A stretch of 64,000 bases of DNA from Massalongia carnosa. Lineage: Eukaryota. The notes beneath the pieces were generated by a model, which did no database searches, was not told the DNA's origin, and saw only the letters and a list, made by a program, of their open reading frames with translations. Shown piece by piece: positions 3,055-59,514 of this stretch (within the stretch, counting starts at the first letter, position 1; every line of letters starts with the position of its first letter). A program made the translations under genes and the position numbers. Location of the stretch: NCBI GenBank assembly GCA_965645245.1, contig OZ287069.1, positions 1,116,001-1,180,000 of the forward strand, written 5' to 3'.

Positions 3055-4540
3055 CCTCCGTGTCTGGATCGCTGGGAATTCAGTCATGACTAGACGACAC
3101 CACATGAGAAGAAAACAGGAAAATTGTTGAGATTTCGCTCCGGCCTCAAACTCCCCCTTTCGATTAACAGTCCCAACTCTTCGGCGTGACTCGAGTTCCA
3201 GAAAAAATAACCCCTCCCTAAATCTCCCTTCTTCCTCCTTTTTCCCTCCCTTAACTCGACTCAATCCAATCCATATCTCCCCTCCCGGACCACCTAACCA
3301 CCACCTAGTCAGTCAGTCAGTCTACACTGAACGCCCAAGTCTCTGCGGTTTAGGGAGGTTGTTTACCTCGAAAGGAGAAACGTGCGTGGTTTGGGGGAAA
3401 AGAAGGAAAGGTGTGAAAAATGGAGCGTGATTTGATTCCCCCCCAATGGCAGGTCCTCGTACATAGTATTTTGATAAACAGACACATAGACGAGCAGCTT
3501 TTCCTTCGAAGTGATTATTGATTTCAGTAGTTACATTTTTACAAATCTAAAACAAAACGACTTCATTCACTTCAATTGACTGAATAACATCATCGGGGAC
3601 TTCTTCTTCTTCTTCTCTCTCTTTTATCATCTCTTCCTCCCTCTTTAGTCTTCGCTTCATCTCGCCCTCGTCTTCGTCCTCGTCCTCGACCCCGAATCAA
3701 AGATCCATCCAATGCTTTTTCCATACGTCCAAACCCGAATGACTTCTCGCTGAACGCAATTGTCAATCGTTCACCGAGTTCTTCCGGTTCGTAACCGTTC
3801 ATTTCTCATTGCGATTGTAGAATCGGAAAGATCGAGGAAGCCACAAGTCTTTCTGCGATATAAATCAGAGATGATGCAGGAATCGTGATGGTGGCGAGAC
3901 GATGCGGGTGAATCTCGGAAACATACTCGATCAGATTAGCTAGAGGGGGGGTGTTAAGTGTAAAAAAGGGGGGTGTCAAGATAGCGCATAGGGTGTCCCG
4001 GAATTAGATGCCAAAGTAAAAGGAAATCTGGCGATTTCCTAGTAAGCTACGAATCATACTTAGTTAGGTACATTTATATCGCCCTCATCGCGGAAAAAAA
4101 AGGGGGGTATGTAGGTATTAGTTTTCAGCTCAGCCTTCGTGAACTTAACCCAAGAGGACGGAAGGATTGGTGCGACGATCACAAAACCCAACATTCCACG
4201 AAGGTACACATACGGACATAGATTGCCATGGTGCGTGCACGTAGCTATCTATAATATCTGAAATTCGGGTGTCGGGTCACCTGAGAAATTGGGTATGGTG
4301 ATAGGAGGCCATCGGTACCGAGCATAGCGGCGGGATTTCGGCGACGTCCGCGCTCCATGGGAGATGTCATCATTGGTCTGCAGTGAACGTGATATATTTT
4401 TTAGGCCGTGCGCTAGGCGTGGCGAGGCAATATGTTGGATGTGGGAGGAAAAGGGAGGGTGGGACAAGGTCATCAGCTTTGCGAAAAGTGTCCACTCAGG
4501 TGATGATCGTTGGGAACATGATTTCATCTTCGAGGCATGC

Positions 4541-4788
4541 TGGATGCACTGGATGCACTGGATGCACTGGATGCACTGGATGCACTGGATGCACTGGATG
4601 CACTGGATGCACTGGATGCACTGGATGCACTGGATGCACTGCACTGGATGCACTGGATGCACTGGATGCACTGGATGCACTGGATGCACTGGATGCACTG
4701 GATGCACTGGATGCACTGGATGCACTGGATGCACTGGATGCACTGGATGCACTGGATGCACTGGATGCACTGGATGCACTGGATGCAC
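4541..4788. repeat. 9-bp minisatellite (TGGATGCAC): 11 copies, a 5-bp partial unit, then 16 copies
   Basis: Perfect tandem units read directly; one truncated unit (TGCAC) at 4640-4644 shifts the phase. Confidence 0.98.
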
Positions 4789-6798
4789 AGTCATCTGAAC
4801 TCGTAACCATGAAACGCTGAAACAGTGTTGGTCCTTGTTTTGTGCCTGGCAGAGCTTAGCGTTAGCGTGTCTGGATAGATTGGGGATCTGCATGCGAGGC
4901 CGTGCCTGGCACTAGTATTAAACAGGCGTTGCATGGGCGAACCTTATTTCCATCTCCAGAGTACTAGGATTGGTTCCCACCCCTTGACTCAGAACCCTAG
5001 ATGCAAGGGGTTTATTAATAGATACCACGTGCTCCCAAATATTATCATCAGCATCTTCCTCACAGGACATGACATGGGGTTGAGATTGAGTCCTGATTCC
5101 CTATTTATGGGTAAATGAATTATGTGGCTATTCGTAGCATGGCTGGTTGGTTCTTCTTCTAACGAATAGAAATGGGAATCTTCTCGTGATCCAGAATTTT
5201 GAATCACAGGATGCGTGAAAGTAACTGCCCGCCGGGGGGGAATCTCACCCAAACTTGTAGCAGGTGCCATGCGATTTCACGCGTCGATACTGAGTCTAAA
5301 TCCATCATGACTCGATCCTAGGGGAGGTGATACTCATCCTCTGCCGTTCCTTTCTGGACAGATCTGGCCCCTTTCTAACTTGGAAAGATAGGCGCTGTGC
5401 CGCTAGTCTTCGTTATTCTTGTATCTGGAGGCTTCTCAGTGTTCCCAAGGCTGATAAGACTGAAAGAAGCCTTTCCTTGACAGTTTAGAAGTGTATGTTG
5501 CGTGCTATGCATAGTGGCTTCTTCTCGATAACAAATTGGGGGAGAGGCAACTTGTCGTAAGGTCTAGACGCGTAAGCCATAGTAATTAACCCGAAGCTGA
5601 AAATTTTAGGATTGTCCTGATGGTTGCCTTTGAATACATCCCGCAGTGTTGTGCTTTGATGCGTTTAACAAATCGCAAAGAAATGGATCAGATATGTGCG
5701 TAATCTGGAGCATTGATGCACTGAGCTTTAGGCTCACCGCGCGTTCGTTTCTGGAGCTTCATGAAAGCTTTATTTTTTTTAAAAAAAATGGAAAACTTAT
5801 TGACCTTAAGGGGATAGGGAATAAGAATTCATCCTTCAGATGTAGAACTCAGATCTCGGAGGGTAGCGAGATAGATTAGACTGGGCAATCTAGGACCAAT
5901 CAAGGTCTTGAGCCTTTCTGCACAAACAGCACCAAATGTCTTCGTTTGGAAAGTGTTGTCGTAACGCTTACATATGAACTGTATCGCAGAGACTCCGATT
6001 AATACCTAGTAAAATCAATGACCGACATGATGTCGCCGGACGTTTCTCATGGATCAGAACTCTTAGCTTTCAAAGCGGAAGCCTGGGATGCATATATTGT
6101 AAACATGATCTAGTCTTCAATATATATCTCGTAATGTAGGTCGATTTTAACCGTAATATAGGATTTTCTCGTAGATTCCAAATCATGTTCCTTTTGCCAG
6201 ATGACTTGATTTTGAATCCGTAATATCGGTTACTTTATCTTCTAACTAGAGACTTGGATGGCCTGGTCCATTTGAATCTCTAACAATGGTTGCGTGGAAT
6301 ACTCAAGGTATATGAGACTCTGGGTTGGCCCAAGACTATGAGAAACATGATAATTTGGTAGCTTGGTACACAGAGGGTTGATATAAGTCAATAAAAGAGG
6401 GGTTTTTTTACAACATATGAAAAAATTCCTCTAATGAGTCGGGAAGTAGAAAAACACGTTTGGTATGGAGCAGTGAGTTGTATAGATAAACTACGAACAC
6501 GGAATATGCACCCCAGGCATGCTCTTTTGAAACGCCATCTAGCTACTCCTCTGAGCTGTCAACAGAAGCAAAATAACTAATCCTAAATCGAGCGACGCAA
6601 GCATAGTCAGGAATTAAACGGACAAGCAAAATCGCGAGTCCAGCCACGGGCGAAAGAAAGTCGAAGTATTCTAGACAAAGAGCGAGAGATGAAAGAGCAA
6701 ACGTTTCTTTCGAATGACCCATCAATCCGGCCGCTTTCGCTTAACAATAATATAGTAATCAATCATTGCTGGTAAAACGGCCAGGGAAATTCCGGCTA

Positions 6799-19399: not shown

Positions 19400-21093
19400 A
19401 GCTATTGAAGCTGCACCACACCAATAAATCGTTTCCAAAATCCAAGGCCCTCTGGTGCTGAGAGATTGTTAAAGAGTTGTAGGAATAGAAAGAATTATGG
19501 AAAGATGGAAGATAAATTTTGTAACTCAGTGTTTCTTTTCCCTCAAGCAAATAGCGACCGAAAAGAAAATCAGGATGTAGGGTATTTGAAGCTACAAAAC
19601 TACCTAGCGAAGAGCTACGGTACAAACGCGAGTGCGGGAGCGTGACACGTGACGTTCGACACGTGAATGAATGAAAATGTATCCACTAATCAGATTACTA
19701 GTCTTTCTCGAGGTGATACAAGAGATGATATGGAAGTGATTCACAGACCGGGCAGGAAGTGGAAAGGGAGGTGGTCTGAAGATCGGTCGCAGGTAATTTG
19801 TAAAAGATGATAAGTAGACAGGGTGATGGGGATTTATCACAAGGTCTTTCCAAATAGTCTTCTGGGGAGTAACTAGGTCTCTCTTAAAGAACTTTGGCCG
19901 GCTGACATATGGACCTGATCAGCTACCGACAACTTAAACCTTAGTAGCTAGATGGTTGAGGACCGCATGAGTGGTACGAATGATACCTTGGTACCCTTTA
20001 TCTAGAAACAAATCTAGCTAGAAAATAAGGTAGGATACAAGCTCATTTCCTTCGTTCTGAAGGGAGACACGACTTTTACCGACGCCGAATAGCCCTGATC
20101 TCAAGCCTTTATCTTCTCGTCAATGGCGTGCTTCTTCCTCCTTATCATAAGCTTTTACTCCATAACTGCCGATTGTTCATTGGGGCCGATCATATCCCAC
20201 ATCTCCTTCATCGCCATCATCTTCATCATTCAGATACTGAACATATGGTGTAAGTGCTTGAAATTTTTGACGAGACGAACTAGATTCTAGGCGCCTGCGC
20301 TTAGGCTCGCCGCTTGTCTTGCGGGCCTCAGCCACTAGACTTTCCCTCTTCCTCTTCCTATCTTTAGCCTCTGGTAGTCCCGGCACCATCTTGTTGGGAT
20401 TCTTCTTCCTGCGCTCATCTAAGCCCTAGTGTACTCTCCCCCTCTATTCTAGTAGTTCTTTACGGCTCTCCACCCCTTGTCGTTGATGTCATATCGCTCG
20501 GTGAGACGTTTTGATATCTCTTTCCATTTGGGTATATCTGTGCCCCATAAGGTCCCTTCACTCTGAATTTCAAGCAGTATGTCGCGTACAAGTATGAGTA
20601 TGCCTTCGGATTCATGGGACCAAAGTCTATTGGGTACTTTAGTGGGTTTTGTATCTTCAGTAGGGGTCGTACGTGCACGCTTGCTTGGCTCACCGTTGGC
20701 TCCAGAACGAGCCGGATCTCTAGAGTTTCGGAGGCTGCTTAGCCTTTGGCTGTCGGCTTTGGCTATGTCTTTCGTCATATTCAGCCTCGAAGCCACCGTC
20801 ACTCTGGGCTGGATTATCGAGGTCGATACGGAACTCGCTGCCACTCTCGTCAGGTTCGTAAGACTTCGCGCGTTTTCTATGCTTGGGCGATTCTGTATTC
20901 CACAAAACCAGTCATCCTCATTTTTGGGTGTTGTATTTAGTGTTAGGCCCACGCAGCTGTAGTGAAACAATCTTGGAGGCTTATGTTTTGCTGAACACTG
21001 TACCTCATAATCAACATGGTCAGGTCTGTCGCACAGAAAGCAGCTTCTCAAAAACTAGTAGCAATCAGAGCTCGTTGCCCGGGTTGAAGAACC

Positions 21094-21309
21094 CTTTGAT
21101 TACAGGAGGCTTAGTGGCAGACTGAAGGCTTTGAAAGGTGATTATATTAATGCTATCTAGAAGGAAGGACGTTCGAGGGGGTCCTCCCGAGGACCGCTAT
21201 AGCAAACACCTCCTTAACCACCTTACCGCATTAGGATTCAGGGGGCCGGCCTATTGTAAGGCCGGCCTCCGATAAGGCTATGTGGACCGTCGCTATTGTC
21301 AATCCAAAG
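21094..21309 (-). repeat. 3' LTR (216 bp)
   Basis: Matches 25941-26174 apart from 4 substitutions and one 18-bp indel. Confidence 0.95.
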
Positions 21310-21356
21310 CTCCCTCACAATAGGAAGGTTCCAACCTCCAGAAGTTTGAATCAACC

Positions 21357-24300
21357 TCATTGATTTGATGCCTCAGGGGCAGTGGTCATATTCATCTGAT
21401 CGATGAACCTTCGAAAGGAGATCCACGGTAGAGGCTTGGTTAGTCCATCAGCTATCATATCCTTAGTGGGCACATAGCTAATTTGAATAGCTCCCTCAGC
21501 GATCAGCTCCCTCGTCTTATGATACTGGATATCGATGTGTTTGGCCCGAGGATGATTGATGGGGTTGTCGGCTAGCTTTATAGCCGCCTTATTGTCAGCT
21601 TTCAGGGGAACGGGGCCATTGACACCATATCCCAAGGATTTCAAGGCATTCGCCAAGAAGACAGCCTCCTTGCCAGCATGGCACTCCCCCATATACTCAG
21701 CCTCAGCTGTGGAGGTGGCCACCGAGGCCTGGCGTTTCGTTGACCAGCTGATTGGTCCGCTGTTCAGGAGGAACACATAGGCGGAAGTGGATCTCCTAGT
21801 GTCCAGACAGTCTCCATAAGAGGCATCAGTATAACCGATTAAATCAGTGTGAATACCCTCATAGGAGGATCCAAAACATAGGCCTAGGTCCCTTGTTCCA
21901 GCCAAATATCGAATTATTCTTTTTAAGATTGCGCCTTGATAGGGGGTAGGATTGATTGAATATCTACTACAGCGATTCACCGAGTAAGCAATATCCGGCC
22001 GAGTCATACATGCTAACCACAATAGAGATCCAATAAGCATTTGATATGCCTTGATCTCTCTATTTGTGGCCTCGTATATCTTGCCTTTATAGTAATTCAT
22101 GACCAGAAGAAGATTGGTCTCCATGGGTGTTTTGACGGATTTGCAATCGGACATGTCGACTGCATCGATGATTCGCCTAATGTACGCCGATTGATGAACA
22201 TATATTCTTCTATTTGGCCGGTCCCGAGTAACGTGCATCCCTAAATAGAAATTAATTGGTCCGAGATCCTTGATCCGGAACCGGTGAGACAATTCAGTCT
22301 TCAAAAGACTGATGTCCGAAAGAGAGGGTCCGATGAGAAGTAGATCATCCACATAAATCGCTATTATGATGCCATTTTGCTGATAAATATAGACCGAATG
22401 GTCCTCGTCCACTCTCCTATAGCCCATGGTGATAAGATAGTCAGTGAGGGTGGAATACCATTCACGGGGGGCCTGCTTGAGACCATACAAGGCCTTCTTC
22501 AAGCGACAGGCATATCCCCTGGTTTGTCAAACCCATGGGGTTGTTCCATCCAGACCTCTTTTAGAGGGGCCTCAAGGAAAGCGGTGACCACGTCGATCTG
22601 TTCGACCTCCAGGTCATATCTAGCCGCTATAGCCAGCAGGGCCTTCCATGTCATTGATTTGACCACGCTGGCATAGGTTTGATTATAGTCAATGCCTTCT
22701 ATCTGGCAAAAACCTTTACCTACCCATCGGGCCTTATATCTAGATATTTCCCCATCCGGACCGAGTTTGGTGGTATAAACCCATCTACTAGGTAGGATCT
22801 TCCTACCAGGTGGTGGAATTTGCAGGTCCCAGGTCCCGTTGATGGAATGAGATTCAACCTCCTCCTCTGATGCTCGGATCCATTCGGTAGCCTCTGAAGA
22901 CTGAATGGCCTCCTTGTAGGTGCTGGGGACGGTGAGGTCGTTTAAGGAGGCCTTAAGAGCTCTCAATGCGAATCCCTTGTTACCTCCTTTCTTAGACCAT
23001 GGATCAGCTAATTTAGCATAATCGGGTCGAGAGGTGTTTCGGGATGGTCGGGATAATGATGTTGGTGGAGGTGGTGGTCTAGGTTCCTGAGGTACCTATC
23101 CTGGTGCGGATTTGATCGACTGCTCGGAATTACTAGTAAATTGGCCTGTAAAAGGAGCAGTTGATGACCCAGAGGTCAGGTCGGCTACTTGTGAGTCCTC
23201 GGAATTTTCTGAACTTTCTGATTTATCATCTTCCTCTCTTCCGGTTCCTTCATCTGCAAATTCCGGTTCTAAAGGCCGTTTAGGGGGTTCCTCATTAACG
23301 AGTTCCTCCTCTTCATTGGCATAAATTATCACTCCTGGTGTGTCCACCTCGTCGTCACCATTTCGGTAGAAGAATTGTAAGAAGCCATAGTCGTCGTCGC
23401 CACCATCCCCCGATTCTTCAACCGAAAGGGATGCGGTCTCGTCCCATAGCACGTGTGCCGAAATGATGGGTTTCTTGGAGGTGAGGTCCCAAAGGCGATA
23501 CTTGTTGTTGCCTTGAAGGCCAAGAAATCTGCATTTGATGCTTCTGTCGTCCAGCTTCTTCTTCTGAGGGTCAACATTGTAAGAGTATGCTACGCACCCG
23601 AAGATACGAGCACCCGACAAGTCTGGCTGTCTGCCATACATCAGTTCGAAGGGTGTTTTATCACCATGCCTTGGACTCCTGTTTTTCAGGTAAGTAACGT
23701 AGGAAATAGCCTCCCCCCATTGATTAGAAGGCATTCCACTGTCACTAAGAATCGCACGGGTTCGCTCGAAGAGGGTGCGAAAGCACCTCTCGGCTACCCC
23801 ATTCTGATTCGGATTGTGTGGTGCTGTCGCATCCCACTCAATGCCATTGTCCTTCAAAATTTGTAAGGTCTGATGGCCAGCATACTCCCCTCCGTTGTCA
23901 ATGCGCATAAGTTTGACCGGATGTCCTTGTGTCTTCATCCATGCTAAATAGTCCTTTAGGACCTCCTTTAATTCGGATTTTTTCTTCAGAAGGTAAATCA
24001 CCGTCCAGTCAGTAAAATCGTCAACGAAGGAGGCAGCATACTTGGCTCCCCCAATTGTCTGAGGTATGTCCCCCCCGCCAGCAATGTCGGTATGTACAAT
24101 TTCACCGATGTTGGTGGCCTTTAGTCGTTGAATTCTAACTGGATTTCGATGTTGTTTTCCTATTGCACATGATGGACACACGTTGATTTTAGGTTCTGCT
24201 GATTCACATTTATCAGCCTTAATTGCATCAATGCCAGTGGAGAGTTTAGCTAAAATCTTGACGTCCTTCATGTTGAGATGGGCTAATCGTCGGTGCCACA

Positions 24301-25806
24301 CCGTCCACGAGGCATTGTCGGAGGATTTGTAAGAGGTATGTAAGGTCTTTGATTGGTCCAGGTCGATCGAGTGTGTGGATCCAGAAGACTGACGAGTACC
24401 AGTAAGACAGAGTTCTCCGTCAGGGGCAAAACATTCAGTTCTTCCTTTTCCTACTCGAAATTCGAATCCTTTCGACTCAATAACCCCTACAGAAAACAGC
24501 TTGTATGCTGACTCGGGTACGTGATGGACATCCTTTAGGCATACAGCCTTTGATTCACCATCCACGTCTAGATACAGGGTAACAGATCCTTTTCCTTTGA
24601 TAATCATATCAGTGGAGATGGCCGTTTTTATGACCTTCCCTCTAATTGATTGATAGTCATCAAATAGGTCTTTGTCATAGCAAATATGGACATCGGAAGC
24701 CGAGTCTATCCACCAGGTACGATCCTTATTTTGAGACTTATGGACGTTAGTAAAGAGGCTCTTGGTTATCATTGATCTTGGAACGAAGGCTGATTTGGAC
24801 GAGGGATTCGATTCCTTCTTGTCCTTATCCTCCTTCCTATCCTCGTTCTTATTCTTCACTAAGTTTTCCTTAGATGGGGCCGGTTTCCAGTTATCGGGCC
24901 GGTTGGTTGCATTCAGATAATAGCAATTGGTCTTGTTGTGGCCAGGACCGTCACAGTATTCACATTTTGACGAATTGGTATTTTTCTCCTTTTTCCCCTT
25001 TTTGCTCTTCTCATCTTCTTCTTTCTTTTCCTTCCTGTTGAACTTAGCCGTCAGTGCCTTGTTGGATTCCTCTAAGTTATGTTGACGGTTATCATGATCT
25101 ATTAAGGCCATCATCATCTCGTCAACGTCTAACTCCCTCATGTTTGCTCTTGCAGCCTCTACGAGACTGAAGATATAAGGTTCCAGGTCCGGTTTAAGAC
25201 CAAGTCGGAACGAGCTAGAGAGAACCCAGTCTGGTAACTTGTGACCGAGTTGTATCAACTGGGAGTGGGCCTTCTTTAGGTGTTCGGCGTACTCCTGAAT
25301 GGATTTGAAATCTGATTGGCTAGCACGAAGTTGAAGGAAGGCCAGGTCTCTAGTGGCCAGACTTGTTGCTTTGTAATGCTTTTCCAGTACATCCCACATC
25401 TCTTTTGGGTCTTCCAGGCCCTCTATATGGACTCGAGGGCCTGTTCCACAGTTCAAGTATATCTTGGTAGCTGCTTTTACCTTCGCTTGTCCCATTTCTT
25501 CTGTTTGTCCTCGAAAGCCTCCAGTTTGTCCTCGAAAGCCTCCAGTTTGTCCTCGAAAGCCTCCAGTTTGTCCTCCCACCGCTCAATAGTGCTTTGTGTC
25601 ACTACTATGGCCGGGGTGGTGACTCCATCCTCTATCTTAGAAGGGGAGTCCACTGGTCGAGGCGGAGCATTAAGGGGTCGGAGTTCTTCCCCTTTAACTA
25701 TATCCCACAGTTCGTCTAAACTGAGGAGGCCTTTCACCTCCTCCTTCCATACATTGTAGTTCTTTTCACCTACCAACGGCTTTATCTGATAGGTTTCTAG
25801 TCCCAT
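21357..25806 (-). pseudogene. Disrupted gag-pol polyprotein
   Basis: Zn knuckle CEYCDGPGHNKTNC; protease WWIDSAS; integrase HHCC (WHRRLAH..CPSC) and DD35E (VHTD, RIDNGGEY, NGVAER); RT LYGLKQAPREW and YVDD; RNase H YTDAS and AEAEY. Frameshifts near 25485 and 22515; in-frame TAG at 23096. Confidence 0.95.
25503..25575. repeat. 21-bp tandem repeat, about 3.5 copies, in gag, encoding (EDKLEAF)n
   Basis: GTTTGTCCTCGAAAGCCTCCA repeated perfectly. Confidence 0.93.
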
Positions 25807-25928
25807 TGTTGAAGACTAAGCACCGACAGCTGAGGAGGTTATTTAAGGCTTGATAATTGGCCTACAAGGACGAGGACTAGATATGTAGGAAGAGAAGAGA
25901 TTATATAGCACTTCCCTAGCGTCTAGCC

Positions 25929-25940
25929 GGGCTCATAACC
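25929..25940 (-). promoter_or_regulatory. Primer-binding site complementary to the anticodon arm of initiator tRNA-Met (Ty5/copia half-tRNA type)
   Basis: The minus strand reads GGTTATGAGCCC directly after the 5' LTR. Confidence 0.85.
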
Positions 25941-26174
25941 ATTTGATTACAGGAGGCTTAGTGGCAGACTGAAGGCTTTGAAAGGTGATTATATTAATGC
26001 TATCTAGAAGGAAGGAAGTTCGAGGGGGTCCTCCCGAGGACCTTATTGACCAGATTGTTTGCTATAGCAAACACCTCCTTAACCACCTTACCGCTTTAGG
26101 ATTCAGGGGGCCGGCCTATTGTAAGGCCGGCCTCCGATAAGGCTAGGTGGACCGTCGCTATTGTCAATCCAAAG
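25941..26174 (-). repeat. 5' LTR (234 bp)
   Basis: Direct repeat of the 3' LTR with an extra TTATTGACCAGATTGTTT; followed on the minus strand by the PBS. Confidence 0.95.
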
Positions 26175-26500
26175 GAACCAACCAAGGTAGAACTGTTTTG
26201 GCTAAGTAAAGCAGAGTTCATTGCTGGAGTTGAAAAGCCAACAAGTGTCGAGCTATTCTGGCTAGGCAAAATAGAATTCGTTGCTCGAGTTGAAGAACCA
26301 ACCAAGGTAGAAGAACTGTTTTGGCTAGGTAAAGCAAAGTTCGCTAGTGGGGTTGAAAATCCAGCAAATGGAGCATTGCTTTAACCACGAAAACCACGGT
26401 TCACTGCCAGAGTTGAAAACCTACCCAATGTAGATCTGCCTTGGCCATGCAAACTAGAGTTCGTTGCCAGAGCTGAATGCCTACTTGATGAAGAGCTACC
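26175..26500 (-). repeat. Degenerate ~54-bp (18-aa) repeat in the host pseudogene, about 6 units
   Basis: Units resembling SQNSSTLVGxSTxAxNSxL recur; DNA core GTTGAA(A/G)A spaced about 54 bp apart. Confidence 0.8.
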
Positions 26501-29500
26501 TTAGCCAAATATAGGCGTCGGAGGAGGCTCGCGCTGCTCGCTATTTAAATTATAGGTTGTCTCAGATGAAAGCGCCTCAGTTGATCTGGCGGCGGATGGC
26601 GCTTCAGTTGTTACACGCTTACGACGTAATGCTGGTAATCTTGATGATTGGCCTTGCCCTTCCACATCTGCTTCATCATCTTCCTCACGGTCTCGAGGCT
26701 CTTCGACAGGTGCAGTCATGATGTCTTCGAAGCCGGGGTGACGGTGCTTCGTCATCTTCCTCCGAGTCTCTGTCGGTTGGCGTTAATCCGATTTCTCTTG
26801 ATCGTTCTAGGAAACTCTCACGGATGTTTTGTTGATGGCTGATTCCGGGAGTAGGCAGTCTGGGGTTGACATTTTGAGCAGGCAGTCTTGGAGTACCGTT
26901 AAGAGTAGGGAATCTGGAGTTATTGTTAGGAGCTGGCAGTTTAGATGGACCACTTCCAGCAGCCTGGATAGGAACGCTACCGAGAGTTGTAAGAGTGGGG
27001 TTTGCACCGTGTCCACCCAGCGCGGCATACGCAGGGACTTGGATGCCGAACAGCGCTGGATTGAGCACCGCACTTGGATTGACCCCTGAGGGAGGAGGTT
27101 GCCAATCCGGAAATGGAGGTCTGTGCGGGTTTTCGACCGATCCGTTCACGAACGTGGATGAACCAACCTCAAGCTGGGAACGGGACAAGAGCCTAATTCG
27201 AGATCTAGGTTACCTATCGAATGCTCGAGCTACTATGCCATAGAGAGTGTTAGCCGAGCAATAGGCATAGGTATGCCCACCAGGGCGGCACTGACAGAAT
27301 CAAGGAGATATCTATCCCAGCGTAGGGGTACGGGCCACGGAGTGGCAAGGCCATTGGTAACCTAATTGCCGCGTCAGCTCTATGGGAAGGCCTTGGGTGA
27401 TGTTGGAAAGTAATTTCACTTACAAAAGCCTCAAGACTTCTATCCACACCCACCACATCATCAGCTTGCCGGGTTATTTCGAGGAACAACTCTTCAGCCT
27501 CTCTCGCCGTGTTGGCATTGTCATGAATTTTGTTTCCGAACTGGATCCACTCATAAACGCTGTCCATAAAATCTGGCTGGGGACCAATGGACATATGCTG
27601 TGGCGGCGGCGGCGGAGGAGTAGGTGGGGGGGGAGAGGGAGGAGGCGGAGGGGGGGAGGATTCATCTTGCCAGAGACGAGTTCCTACGCTCTAAAAGATA
27701 TTGAAAATAACGAGTAAGGGTAAAAAGACAAGCAAAGAAAATCCGCTGCGGTCAACGCTGCGGCGAAGAAGGCCTGCTTCGTTTGGGTTGGATCTGGTAT
27801 CTGCTTTTAAAAGAGGAAAATCTGGACCAGCCAGAAACTTGCTTTTGATAATAAGGAAGAGATTTTGTGTAAGCCAGTACACAGTTGATTAAACAGTTGC
27901 GCTGAAGGTATCGACAACCATGGACAAGAGAAGGATACGATGGGAAAAGAAGATGAAGAAGAAATAAGAAAGAAACGGGAGGCGAGAGATATAAGTAGCA
28001 TACTCGCCCGGTGAATGAGAGTTGAGAAGCCATGTTCAATAGCAACGATATATGCTCGTCAATAGAGTTCGTGGATATTCTCAACTATGATGACTTTTTC
28101 TTATTATTCACCCCAAAGTTTCAAACGTTGCTATTGAGATGTTACGAGATCTATTATCCACAATCTCCAAGCTAGCAGTTAGATGAGTTTCGGAATTTAT
28201 CGACAAAGGAGTCTGTGTTGAACCTTGAGCGATAATAGAAGTAGTAGCAAGGAAAAGGAGGTTGGGTTTTCCATACCGACAACGCTCGGCCACAAATAAC
28301 ACACACAATCCACAGCATTACATCATGGCCGTTTAGCATCTTTGCTCGACTCTGATCGATTGATGACTTCGAGCGATTATATGAAAGCATTCATGAACCT
28401 TTCAAGCCGTTGAAATATATCATATGTCTAAGTTAGAGTTCTGGAGGATTAGGTTGCTGATACCTGTTGCCGCACACTCAATACATTCATCTAGATTCTG
28501 ATTCTGATATCTCTCCATTGATTTTAATACCACGCCTCTTTCATCTTTCAGCTTCCAGATCAGTAAGGCTAATGCTGAAGTGCGACTCCATGGACGAAAA
28601 GCACGAGACGACTGGCAATATTATACAGTTTACTGCCGCCATTCACACGCCACTCCTTTGAGCAATGTACCCATGTAGCTGAAAATGGAGCATCCTTGCA
28701 GATGAGTAGTCACCGTACATGTGAACTTGTCATAAGTTCGTTATGTGATGTAGCAGCAGCCATGTAGTTGTAAAGCTCTCGGGATAAAGACCCATCAACG
28801 CAGCGAGACCCTCAGAGCAAGCTTTTAGACATATATCTAAATGGTAAATGAAGTGCAATGATACTTTCACAAAGAGTCGGATGAAAACCAGCAAAGCGTC
28901 TACGACCAATTACTATGGCGGTAAACTGGTGCCGAAGCGCCGGCTGACCACCTTCACGTGGAGATAACACACACACACACCTTGCCAGTTTAAGCTTGGA
29001 GTGCACAATTCACTCTCATCAAACTGCCGCCTCAGGTACGTGTCCAACGGGATTCTTCAAAACCATCTAAAGAAGCTAGCGCCTTTCTCCGGAAAGATCC
29101 GGTTCACCATTCGCAGGGTCATCAAAGGAGAGTATTCAATGGAAATGCGATTCCAGAATGTCGAGTTTTAAAGATAACGCTTGGTCTTTATTATACCCTC
29201 AGGAATATTGAAAAGCTAAATTTTAAACGGAGAACCTCTTAAGAGACGATGACAGATAGGTAAAGTTTACATCCAATCGGTACAAGCCACGAAAAAAAAA
29301 TCTTAGTCGAGAAGAAATCAAGTCCTTCATCAGCCTCGTTCCTTTTTTTTTAGGCGGAACAAAGCCGATCAAGGGCCAATATTGGGCAACAACCCTTGTC
29401 CGAGTTGGATGTGCCGTTCTAGAGCCTAGCTGCACCAAGAGAGTCTCAACAGGTTCCTCGGTTTCTTGAAATTTGTAAATATTTAGGCTCAGCAGCATTA

Positions 29501-57379: not shown

Positions 57380-59514
57380 TCGTCTGGCAATTTGGCAGCC
57401 ATTTAGGTAATATTCAATTTTACACGCGCCGTCTCCGGGTAATGACTAATAACTTTAATCTGGCCAATCAGATTTTCCCTTTTCAACGATAATGGGTACA
57501 ACACCTCAATCACCCCTCATGATCTATGTAAAATTTCCCAACATGCCTCCTTTTTGCAACATGGTCCACAGCTCTTACATTGCCATCTGGTCTGACTTGC
57601 ACGTCGTCTTTTGGTGCAATTTTCATCAATTTCCGCAAGTGGTCGCCGTCGTTTGAGTCTTGGCACTTGCCTTTTGCAGGCCAAACAATAGTCCTTCTTA
57701 TTCAAATGCTCCCATTTGCAAGTTGACTCGACGTCTTTATTAACGTCTTGATTAGTAGTAACTATGACATCTGTCGGACGTTTCCGTAGGGCACCGGCTT
57801 GATTGGATAGTAGGGCATTTACTATTTCTTTTTGAAAGTCCAAATGGCTGAGTGTTGAATTCGGATACAGAATTCTCCACAATTTGAAGGCATTTAGAAC
57901 GGCTGCATCCAGAAGAAAGATGAAAATTGACCACCAGTAGCGACGATCAGATCTTTGAGGTGAATAATATGCTCTTTGCTGAGCTTTCCCATCTGACCCG
58001 CCCATGTGCTGGTTATATTCCACGATGGGCATGGGAAATGGAAGCTTTTCTTCTTCATCATCAACGATGACTCTGGAATTTGCAGGAATTCCATGACGTC
58101 GACGGGAATTCTTGTAGAAAGAAGTCTTCAAATCCTCAATTGTATGAACCGTGGTCATGAATTGCACGGTGTTTAAATCCACCCATGCCATACACAGAAT
58201 GTCCCCGTCATCAATGTTTGATTTTTTACTTTTATTTGCAGGTACCGTCATCAATGCCTTCTTTCCCCAGTCCTTGTTCTTGGTGGCTGCAACCCTCAGA
58301 CGTAGAAGATCAACAGGAAAACCGCATCCTGATTTAGCCGTCCCACAGGCACCAATTCCAATGGTTTTCAGAGCTTTGAATAGCTTCGTATTTGTGAAGA
58401 AGTTGTCCAGAAAGATGACGTATTTCAAGCCTTCATCAGACGGTAAACTTCGAGCCAGTTGAATGACGACTAGGGAGGAAGGAGACAAATCCCATTTGGT
58501 TGTCGGAAATTTCAATTGTCCAGGCGTTTTTAACTCACTAATTTTGGACACCTGTCTTGCAATTAGTACGATGCAAATTGAGGCCTTTTCTACTCACCTT
58601 GGAGGTAAATAAGAAGTCAAAAAGATAATTTTTCTGACATAAACTATAGATTTTGAAGCCTACACCAGCCGCCTTGGTGGCTATTTGCATAGTATGGCAG
58701 CTCCTACCCCTGAATAAAATCAATTGCTCGTCAACTGACACATGACTTCCAGGAATCCAGTATTTCTTTGATGCTTTTCGAAAGTCTGTGGCCAATGGTT
58801 CCAGCTTTTTCCACCAATCAGGGCCTCGAGTATCAATGATCTCATCTTCGTCGGGGTTGGATATCTTCAAAAATCGCTTGAGTTGCTCCCATCTTCGAAG
58901 ACTCATGGCTTGAATCACCATATCATGTATGGCAAATTTAGGAGACGTGTTCCAATAGTCAGTAAGACGTGGCATCAGTGTATACCCCATATATAACAGA
59001 ATTCCCAGAAAAGCTCCTACTTCAGAAGAAGAGGTGTCATGCCATTGACGTCTCTTGATGTCGTTTAGGGCATACTTCTTTTTCGCTTTAAGATTGGTGT
59101 TTTTAGCTATGATTTCAAGCATTTCAAAGCTAAAGAAGAGGCAGAATAAACTGAAAGGAGTCTGATTTTATCAAGCGCAACGTATCGTCCGGCTGTGGTT
59201 TTCGAAATGGGATCGAAATTGGACAATAATTTGATGACGGAGGGGGCATGGAGTCAATTATGCTTTGTACGCTGGGTTTATTCTTTTTGGCCTGTTCTTT
59301 CAGAATTGAGGGGGGCAAAGCGTCTCATTGGTCAGGAACTTCTATCTCAATGCCTCTCATGATTATTCTAAAGAAATTGTAGATGTTTTAATGATTTTCA
59401 ACTGATGTTTACCTTCTTATTTACAAAAAAAGGGGAGAATGTTTTGAAGTTCGCGACTCAGCCCTACGGTATCTCACTAAGCCTATTTAAGGTGGCTGCC
59501 AAATTGCCAGACGA
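57380..59514 (-). mobile_element. piggyBac-family DNA transposon with 22-bp TIRs
   Basis: TCGTCTGGCAATTTGGCAGCCA (57380-57401) and its exact reverse complement (59493-59514) enclose a DDD transposase. Confidence 0.9.
57517..59360 (-). pseudogene. piggyBac-like (DDE_Tnp_1_7-type) transposase, one intron, disrupted near the N-terminus
   Basis: VSVDEQL, FLDNFFT, GACGT, YNQHMGGSD, RRYWW..IFLLD and a Cys-rich C-terminus. Intron 58552-58597; in-frame TGA at codon 12; frameshift near 59165. Confidence 0.88.

Follow-up and report, generated by a model that had tools for sequence, protein, structure and literature searches.

Which bases form the true ends of a retrotransposon that carries TG and CA close to, but not at, its termini, and how would an integrase join such ends? 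The question is raised by a 64,000-nucleotide stretch of the lichen fungus Massalongia carnosa (contig OZ287069.1, positions 1,116,001 to 1,180,000), here called the window. It contains a decayed Ty1/copia retrotransposon of 5,081 bp at 21094-26174 on the minus strand. The element possesses two direct long terminal repeats (LTRs), a primer-binding site (PBS), a polypurine tract (PPT), and a 5-bp target-site duplication (TSD), as is usual for Ty1/copia. The TG..CA termini, typical of this group but not obligatory, are replaced by CT..AG. These ends are real and are found throughout the family.

The initial annotation, made from the window alone, set the element boundary at CTTTG...CAAAG, outside the inner TG..CA pair. 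This call is borne out. The outer boundary is flanked on both sides by GAACC, forming a perfect 5-bp TSD. The TG..CA boundary (21097/26171) leaves mismatched flanks, CCCTT and AAGGA, and hence no TSD. Both priming sites are flush with the LTRs as described: read on the minus strand, CTTTG directly follows the PPT GAGGGAG, and the 5′ LTR runs straight into the PBS GGTTATGAGCCCGGC. In addition, the reconstructed empty site is identical to a 22-mer of the neighboring host repeat at 26289-26310 under the CTTTG..CAAAG boundary alone among the three boundaries tried. The TG..CA boundary, which gives neither a TSD nor this identity, was rejected. One detail requires correction. CTTTG...CAAAG holds for the outer ends, but the inner, PBS-side end of the 5′ LTR reads CAAAT. 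Of 21 PBS junctions identified genome-wide, 20 have CAAAG and the window copy is the exception, so this terminal T is either private to the window copy or an assembly error.

The termini and TSDs of further copies were tabulated in the genome (52 Mb, 25 contigs), a check proposed in the initial annotation. The LTR search yielded 65 candidates, 40 of which were scored. All 40 begin with CTT (36 with CTTT and four, derived from one clonal insertion, with CTTG), and 39 end with CAAAG. A second pattern search left the terminal bases unspecified and returned 82 rows, of which 55 were read as LTR starts. The first base is C in 54 of them, and the remaining one begins with TTTT.

For the TSD count, insertions repeated with identical flanks were counted once, resulting in 21 independent insertions with both ends visible. 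A perfect flush 5-bp TSD is found in 18. The duplicated sequences are GGTTC, TGTTT, ATATC, GTCTG, AGAAA, TCTCG, AACAT, CCATT, GGAAC, ATCTA, and GTCTC for elements and ATTGA, GGCCG, GAAGT, AGTAT, TGAGA, TGATG, and TTTTA for solo LTRs. Since a given 5-mer matches by chance about once in 1,000, this number is far beyond chance. The count leaves out copies with a single visible end (C1:1739.5k, C19:382.5k, C20:1040k, three AGAAC-flanked starts, and LTR ends at C15:460k, C17:752k, C20:522k, and C20:1111k). The ends of the C2 and C5 copies were paired by position. Copies with TG..CA directly against a TSD, which by the initial annotation would have refuted its boundary, were looked for, and none was present among the genome copies examined.

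Some insertions with identical flanks recur on different contigs (TGTTT six times, ATATC four times, GGCCG twice, and AGAAC three times). In the two pairs tested, G000:C17:1755000-1776000 with C13:63000-84500 and G000:C9:135500-157000 with C22:1083000-1104500, the flanks keep 98-99.5% identity for 4-8 kb to either side, nested retroelements included. These are large duplicated or mobile blocks, possibly a giant transposon. Family copies also frequently sit within other retroelements or are split by them, as in the neighborhoods of loci L040, L078, L083, L075, and L090. For example, 1.3 kb is inserted in the 3′ LTR of the C2 copy (G000:C2:246735-248300).

The genome contains a second, sister copia family, whose integrase is 60-62% identical to that of the window family. 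The LTR search of the genome detected no similarity between the LTRs of the two families. The sister family nonetheless ends in CTTTGG..CCAAAG, and all four of its insertions carry TSDs (AATAT, AAAAT, ATGAT, and CTATC). Thus, the CTTTGGATT start and the CAAAG end are common to both families despite LTRs that no longer match. A one-off mutation of the window copy was rejected, as the same ends occur across family copies and the sister family. One sister-family copy (L071:1784-2104, G000:C16:955316-955636) has a largely palindromic 5′ LTR. On its left side, this LTR ends in the U5 (unique 5′) half copied in reverse orientation, which gives the element two outward-facing U5 ends, and the TSD AATAT is intact. 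This copy is either an integrated aberrant cDNA or the result of a post-insertion template switch via the shared CTTTGG.

The position of the ends relative to the priming sites shows how they correspond to canonical ends. The PBS of the window element is complementary over 15 nt to the anticodon arm (nt 25-39) of host tRNA-Met(CAT), identified with ARAGORN and presumably the initiator. A PBS of this kind is characteristic of Ty5 and copia. Ty5 is described as primed by a half-tRNA-Met and ending in TGTTG..CAACA (PMC13017519), and half-tRNA priming is likewise reported for Drosophila copia (PMC10275265). Other copia families of the genome have the same PBS and a GGGAG-type PPT, both flush with LTR ends of TGTTG..CAACA, TGTCA..CATCA, TGTTG..TCATA, TGTTG..CAATA, or TGT..TGATA. 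No LTR pair was found in 6 of the 20 own-genome stretches compared. The register is identical in the canonical families (PPT|TGTTG and CAACA|PBS) and the window family (PPT|CTTTG and CAAAG|PBS). The CTTTG and CAAAG ends therefore contain no extra bases. Because they occupy the same positions relative to PBS and PPT, CTTTG...CAAAG is the canonical 5-bp terminal repeat TGTTG...CAACA with its outer two bases replaced. The apparent inner TG and CA belong to the conserved TTG/CAA, which the element retains in spite of lacking the full Ty5 termini.

PBS-like matches number 480 in the genome, compared with 14 for a control, and not all of them are PBSs; a class preceded by CATTA is apparently internal to another element. 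One match, GGTTATGAGCCCGGGTTAG at L197:606-640 (G000:C1:3219905-3219940), follows TTAACT, and the stretch around it contains neither an integrase nor another LTR. It is possibly a remnant with a CT end.

Relatives were collected from metagenome contigs in a scan seeded with ERCFRTLF, and 80 of 118 loci were kept. A PBS is visible in 52 of these and none was called in 28. The pentamers preceding the PBS, redundant copies included, are CAAGA (27), CAATA (16), CAACA (7), CAAAA (1), and CAAAG (1). Among 24 non-redundant two-LTR relatives, 16 have a TSD: 11 with TG..GA ends, two with TG..CA, two with TG..TA, and one, L165, with CG..AG. The other eight lack a TSD, some being cut by contig ends. The relatives with a TSD have matching terminal bases at their two ends (A/A or G/G), and almost every clade member read retains TTG/CAA. 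L091-L094, the closest metagenome relatives, showed neither a usable LTR pair nor a standard PBS. No relatives were found in viral contigs, and prokaryote genomes gave one weak partial match only. The junction pattern has four matches in viral contigs, none with an integrase, and three of them resemble tRNA genes.

The TG..GA relatives include an abundant fungal copia family with Tos17-like TGTTG..CAAGA ends and 5-bp TSDs (L095, L106, L111, L113, and others), represented by 11 non-redundant insertions. Further copia families of the M. carnosa genome end in TG..TA (L074, L075, L085, L200, and L201), so non-canonical ends are common in this genome.

A midpoint-rooted integrase tree was built from 41 rows: the window element and a selection of the retrieved loci, 14 from the same genome and 26 from metagenomes. 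The window and sister families pair with support of 97/95, within a 28-row clade supported at 100/99.

Blunt joining is known from Ty1 and half-tRNA priming from copia and Ty5. Together with the directly observed ends, TSDs, register, tRNA match, and spectrum of ends in relatives, they make it most likely that the family follows an ordinary Ty1/copia cycle with changed end recognition, in which blunt CAAAG-3′ cDNA ends are joined untrimmed. Minus-strand synthesis would be primed by the 5′ half of host tRNA-Met, extending to nt 39, at the PBS flush with U5. Plus-strand synthesis would start at the PPT flush with the unique 3′ region (U3). Judging from these flush priming sites, the product would be a blunt cDNA with both joining strands ending in CAAAG-3′, which integrase would join without trimming and with a 5-bp stagger. 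CTTTG/CAAAG would be base-for-base homologous to TGTTG/CAACA, with the subterminal CAA retained. The penultimate base appears to have been freed across the wider clade, where it is C, G, T, or A, and the terminal base has become G at both ends in the window family and its sister. Integrase would then read the subterminal CAA and tolerate or prefer G-3′. The altered integrase end specificity put forward in the initial annotation is supported at the sequence level by the family-wide CT..AG ends with flush TSDs.

Several points weigh against this explanation. A perfect TSD is absent from 3 of the 21 independent insertions, one with a 4/5 match and two with none. The tree leaves open how the window family is related to the CG..AG element, and with unresolved branching within the clade and midpoint rooting it does not give the order of the end changes. 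According to the study of Ty1 ends (PMC2939329), CA is required by Ty1 in vivo, and ends changed to AC lower in vitro integration more than 100-fold; end laxity is therefore not a general property of copia elements. Finally, the terminal G of U5 also pairs with nt 40 of the tRNA, which lengthens the match from 15 to 16 nt (nt 25-40).

This longer match fits a different origin of the terminal G, in which the primer was a tRNA fragment reaching to nt 40, its last C was retained and copied, and the U3 end followed. The CG..AG relative L165 also has a G at the end of its U5, but L125, near L165 in the tree, has A at that position. A primer-derived G leaves the C at the U3 start and the penultimate changes (CAAGA, CAATA, and CAAAA) unexplained, and an integrase that joins G-3′ is still required. 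It is an unlikely account of the ends, although compatible with changed end recognition as a route of origin. Less likely again, the integrase of the clade may lack any end preference, so that symmetric CT..AG ends produced by end-to-end copying (template switch) would be carried neutrally. The inverted U5 half at the left end of L071, with its intact TSD, shows that such copying happens, and Ty1 integrase is described as rather relaxed in vitro (PMC2939329). Neutral carriage fits poorly with two families that keep the same start and end in otherwise non-matching LTRs, with the near-constant TTG/CAA of the clade, and with the agreement of the terminal bases in TSD-bearing elements. The retention of shared ends looks like the outcome of selection. 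Least likely of all is the second proposal of the initial annotation, that the true ends are TG..CA and three extra bases per end are integrated untrimmed: TG and CA do lie 3 bp inside the element ends and retroviral integrases are described as removing terminal nucleotides to expose CA (PMC5408687), but in canonical families sharing the register nothing separates CA from the same PBS or the PPT from TG, the inner CA corresponds in alignment to the CAA of CAACA, which canonical and TG..GA relatives have as well, and the cDNA ends joined by Ty1 integrase are blunt (PMC2939329).

If end recognition has changed, a candidate site lies three residues after the catalytic glutamate of integrase (Glu+3). 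This residue is Phe in integrases of the window family's clade and Asn in most copia integrases, including that of Ty1. The integrase core of the window element carries GVAERCFRTLF. In the 113 of 121 proteins with the motif, Glu+3 is Asn in 86, Phe in 24, His in two, and Ile in one, and all 24 Phe-bearing proteins are among the first 31 of the list. Counting from the glutamate, the position is equivalent to N155 of HIV integrase, and in a model of the N155H substitution the terminal 3′ adenosine moves (PMC3797783). Other observations speak against a causal role. Phe is not sufficient, since the Phe-bearing L103, L104, and L131 keep CA ends. It is also not needed for TA ends, as Glu+3 is Asn in L074 and L200; it is Gly in L085, and L201 also lacks Asn. 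The metagenome loci carry Phe largely by construction because the scan was seeded with ERCFRTLF. The association of Glu+3 Phe with end type is a correlation only, and the idea that the Asn-to-Phe change permits the changed ends is speculative. Equally tentative is the combined scenario in which the clade escaped the CA-3′ rule by Glu+3 Phe, recognition moved to the subterminal CAA, and at least two families came to join G-3′ at both ends.

The features of the window element and its insertion site are listed in Table 1. The order of Pfam matches along the element is Retrotran_gag_2, Pol_BBD, gag_pre-integrs, rve, SH3_retrovirus, and then RVT_2. This corresponds to the copia order of gag, protease, integrase, reverse transcriptase (RT), and RNase H, with RNase H recognized from its motif only. 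Four substitutions and one 18-bp indel distinguish the two LTRs. Beside the gag N terminus lies a 21-bp tandem repeat (25498-25575). The coding region is disrupted by two frame changes and one in-frame stop. Small indels in this region separate the window copy from contigs of four public runs, so some of the breaks may be private or assembly errors.

Table 1. Features of the window element and its insertion site (window positions)
Feature	Position	Strand	Match
Host frame downstream of the insertion, PHD-finger-like stretch	20449..21054	-	E 1.4e-4, below Pfam cut-off
TSD copy GAACC	21089..21093
3′ LTR, 216 bp, CTTTG...CAAAG in element orientation	21094..21309	-
PPT GAGGGAG, flush with 3′ LTR	21310..21316	-
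Frame of RT C-terminal part (YVDD) and RNase H	21357..22526	-	RVT_2 E 4.7e-18
Linker and RT N-terminal part, different frame, behind in-frame stop (copy broken here)	22502..23095	-
Frame of gag C-terminal part (CCHC knuckle), protease, integrase (HHCC, D-D-E, SH3)	23096..25582	-
gag N terminus, out of frame with remainder	25477..25815	-	weak DUF4219 match
PBS GGTTATGAGCCCGGC, complementary to nt 25-39 of host tRNA-Met(CAT), flush with 5′ LTR	25926..25940	-
5′ LTR, 234 bp, start CTTTG, end CAAAT in window copy	25941..26174	-
TSD copy GAACC	26175..26179
Single-copy host 60/63-bp tandem repeat; element sits in first unit	26180..26490	-

The insertion was also claimed to interrupt a host reading frame that the empty site restores. 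This holds only locally, and reading without introns does not reveal an intact host gene: the empty site is stop-free for 79 codons only, bounded by a stop 12 codons beyond the junction and by a second one upstream of it. The PHD-like stretch lies behind a stop. On both sides of the insertion (20177-21054 and 26180-27690, minus strand), the single-copy host locus is fragmentary, with short frames, the PHD-like stretch, and 20-codon repeats. It may be a pseudogene, an intron-rich gene, or a gene affected by assembly indels. A junction across the element, indicating an empty allele, was seen in none of the four public runs, whose contigs can show presence but not absence. Run X1, which has flank substitutions relative to the window genome, also reads from both flanks into the LTRs. 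In public runs from three studies, contigs leave the element for other flanks exactly at 21094 and 26174 or within a few bases of them, which counts in favor of the CT..AG ends. The public runs containing the window stretch include a lichen metagenome, and no RNA run is listed among them.

The remaining genes of the window look fungal. A DDE_Tnp_1_7 transposase, which we take to be piggyBac-like, is split over two frames at 57517-59167 on the minus strand. A 9-bp tandem array at about 4500-4830 lies inside a 220-codon open frame (4249-4911) that has no Pfam match.

Of the elements described before, yeast Ty5 and Drosophila copia resemble the window element in the PBS against the tRNA-Met anticodon arm, the 5-bp inverted terminal repeat with TTG/CAA, and the domain order (PMC13017519, PMC10275265). 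The likeness rests on priming, ends, and domain order, and the outer dinucleotides differ, being CT..AG in the window element. The best solved-structure match of the window integrase is Ty1 (7z0h_W, E 6.5e-20). Ty1 of Saccharomyces cerevisiae shares the integrase core, the 5-bp TSD, and ends flush with the priming sites, as blunt joining predicts. Unlike the window element, Ty1 is reported to need a terminal CA and to prime with the tRNA 3′ end (PMC2939329), and it has Asn instead of Phe at Glu+3.

Two copia clades of filamentous ascomycetes, GalEa and FunCo1, also have short LTRs and 5-bp TSDs (PMC5445492). As described there, GalEa has TGT..CA ends, a hairpin site in place of a PBS, and QTDD and CQPEA motifs, whereas the window element has a tRNA PBS, YVDD, and TRPDI. 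The FunCo1 PBS, ATTAAGAGTCT (tRNA-Lys), is likewise not that of the window element. By these published descriptions, the element belongs to neither clade.

Non-TGCA copia ends are already known from plants, including Tos17 (TG..GA), TARE1 (TA..CA), AtRE1 (TA..TA), TG..CT, TG..TT, and AA..CA (bioRxiv 10.1101/137141, PMC9804982, PMC5659011). These elements are similarly of copia type, with short LTRs, transposition-competent non-TGCA ends, and mixed ends within an integrase clade. The initial annotation described non-TG..CA copia ends as mostly plant variants starting with T. Two surveys agree, describing the first T as invariable, with A or T as the last base in lotus (bioRxiv 10.1101/137141, PMC9804982), but an AA..CA subfamily, reported along with TG..TT in Rosaceae, is an exception (PMC5659011). 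One or two of the four positions are changed in the plant elements as described. In the window family and its sister, the first base is not T and all four positions are changed, yet the two ends are still perfect inverted repeats of each other. Another lineage-wide replacement of TG/CA, in part also as a perfect inverted repeat, is known from the errantiviruses of Drosophila (gypsy, ZAM, and Idefix; AGT..AnT), but they belong to the gypsy superfamily, use other bases, and integrate target-specifically (PMC5408687). No report of CT..AG LTR ends was found in the literature searched, a result that says nothing about Repbase, Dfam, GyDB, survey supplements, or subscription journals. The type of system is not new; what appears to be new here is the complete replacement of the most strongly conserved LTR motif by CT..AG, with intermediates in relatives.

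The reasons for the persistence of TG..CA in LTR elements and the way in which other ends are integrated have been called poorly understood (PMC5659011, PMC9804982). The CT..AG family breaks the rule of an invariable first T stated in the two plant surveys. Annotation tools that require TGCA or listed T-starting motifs would miss such elements or place the boundaries 3 bp too far in, where no TSD is present. One integrase clade spans the range from TG..CA to fully replaced CT..AG ends and includes a candidate residue, providing a natural test case for integrase end recognition. If the combined scenario is true, the clade would possess an integrase with a new, possibly tunable donor-end specificity, and the change would be traceable through living intermediates (CA, TA, GA, AA, CG/AG, and CT/AG) that motif-based annotation has overlooked.

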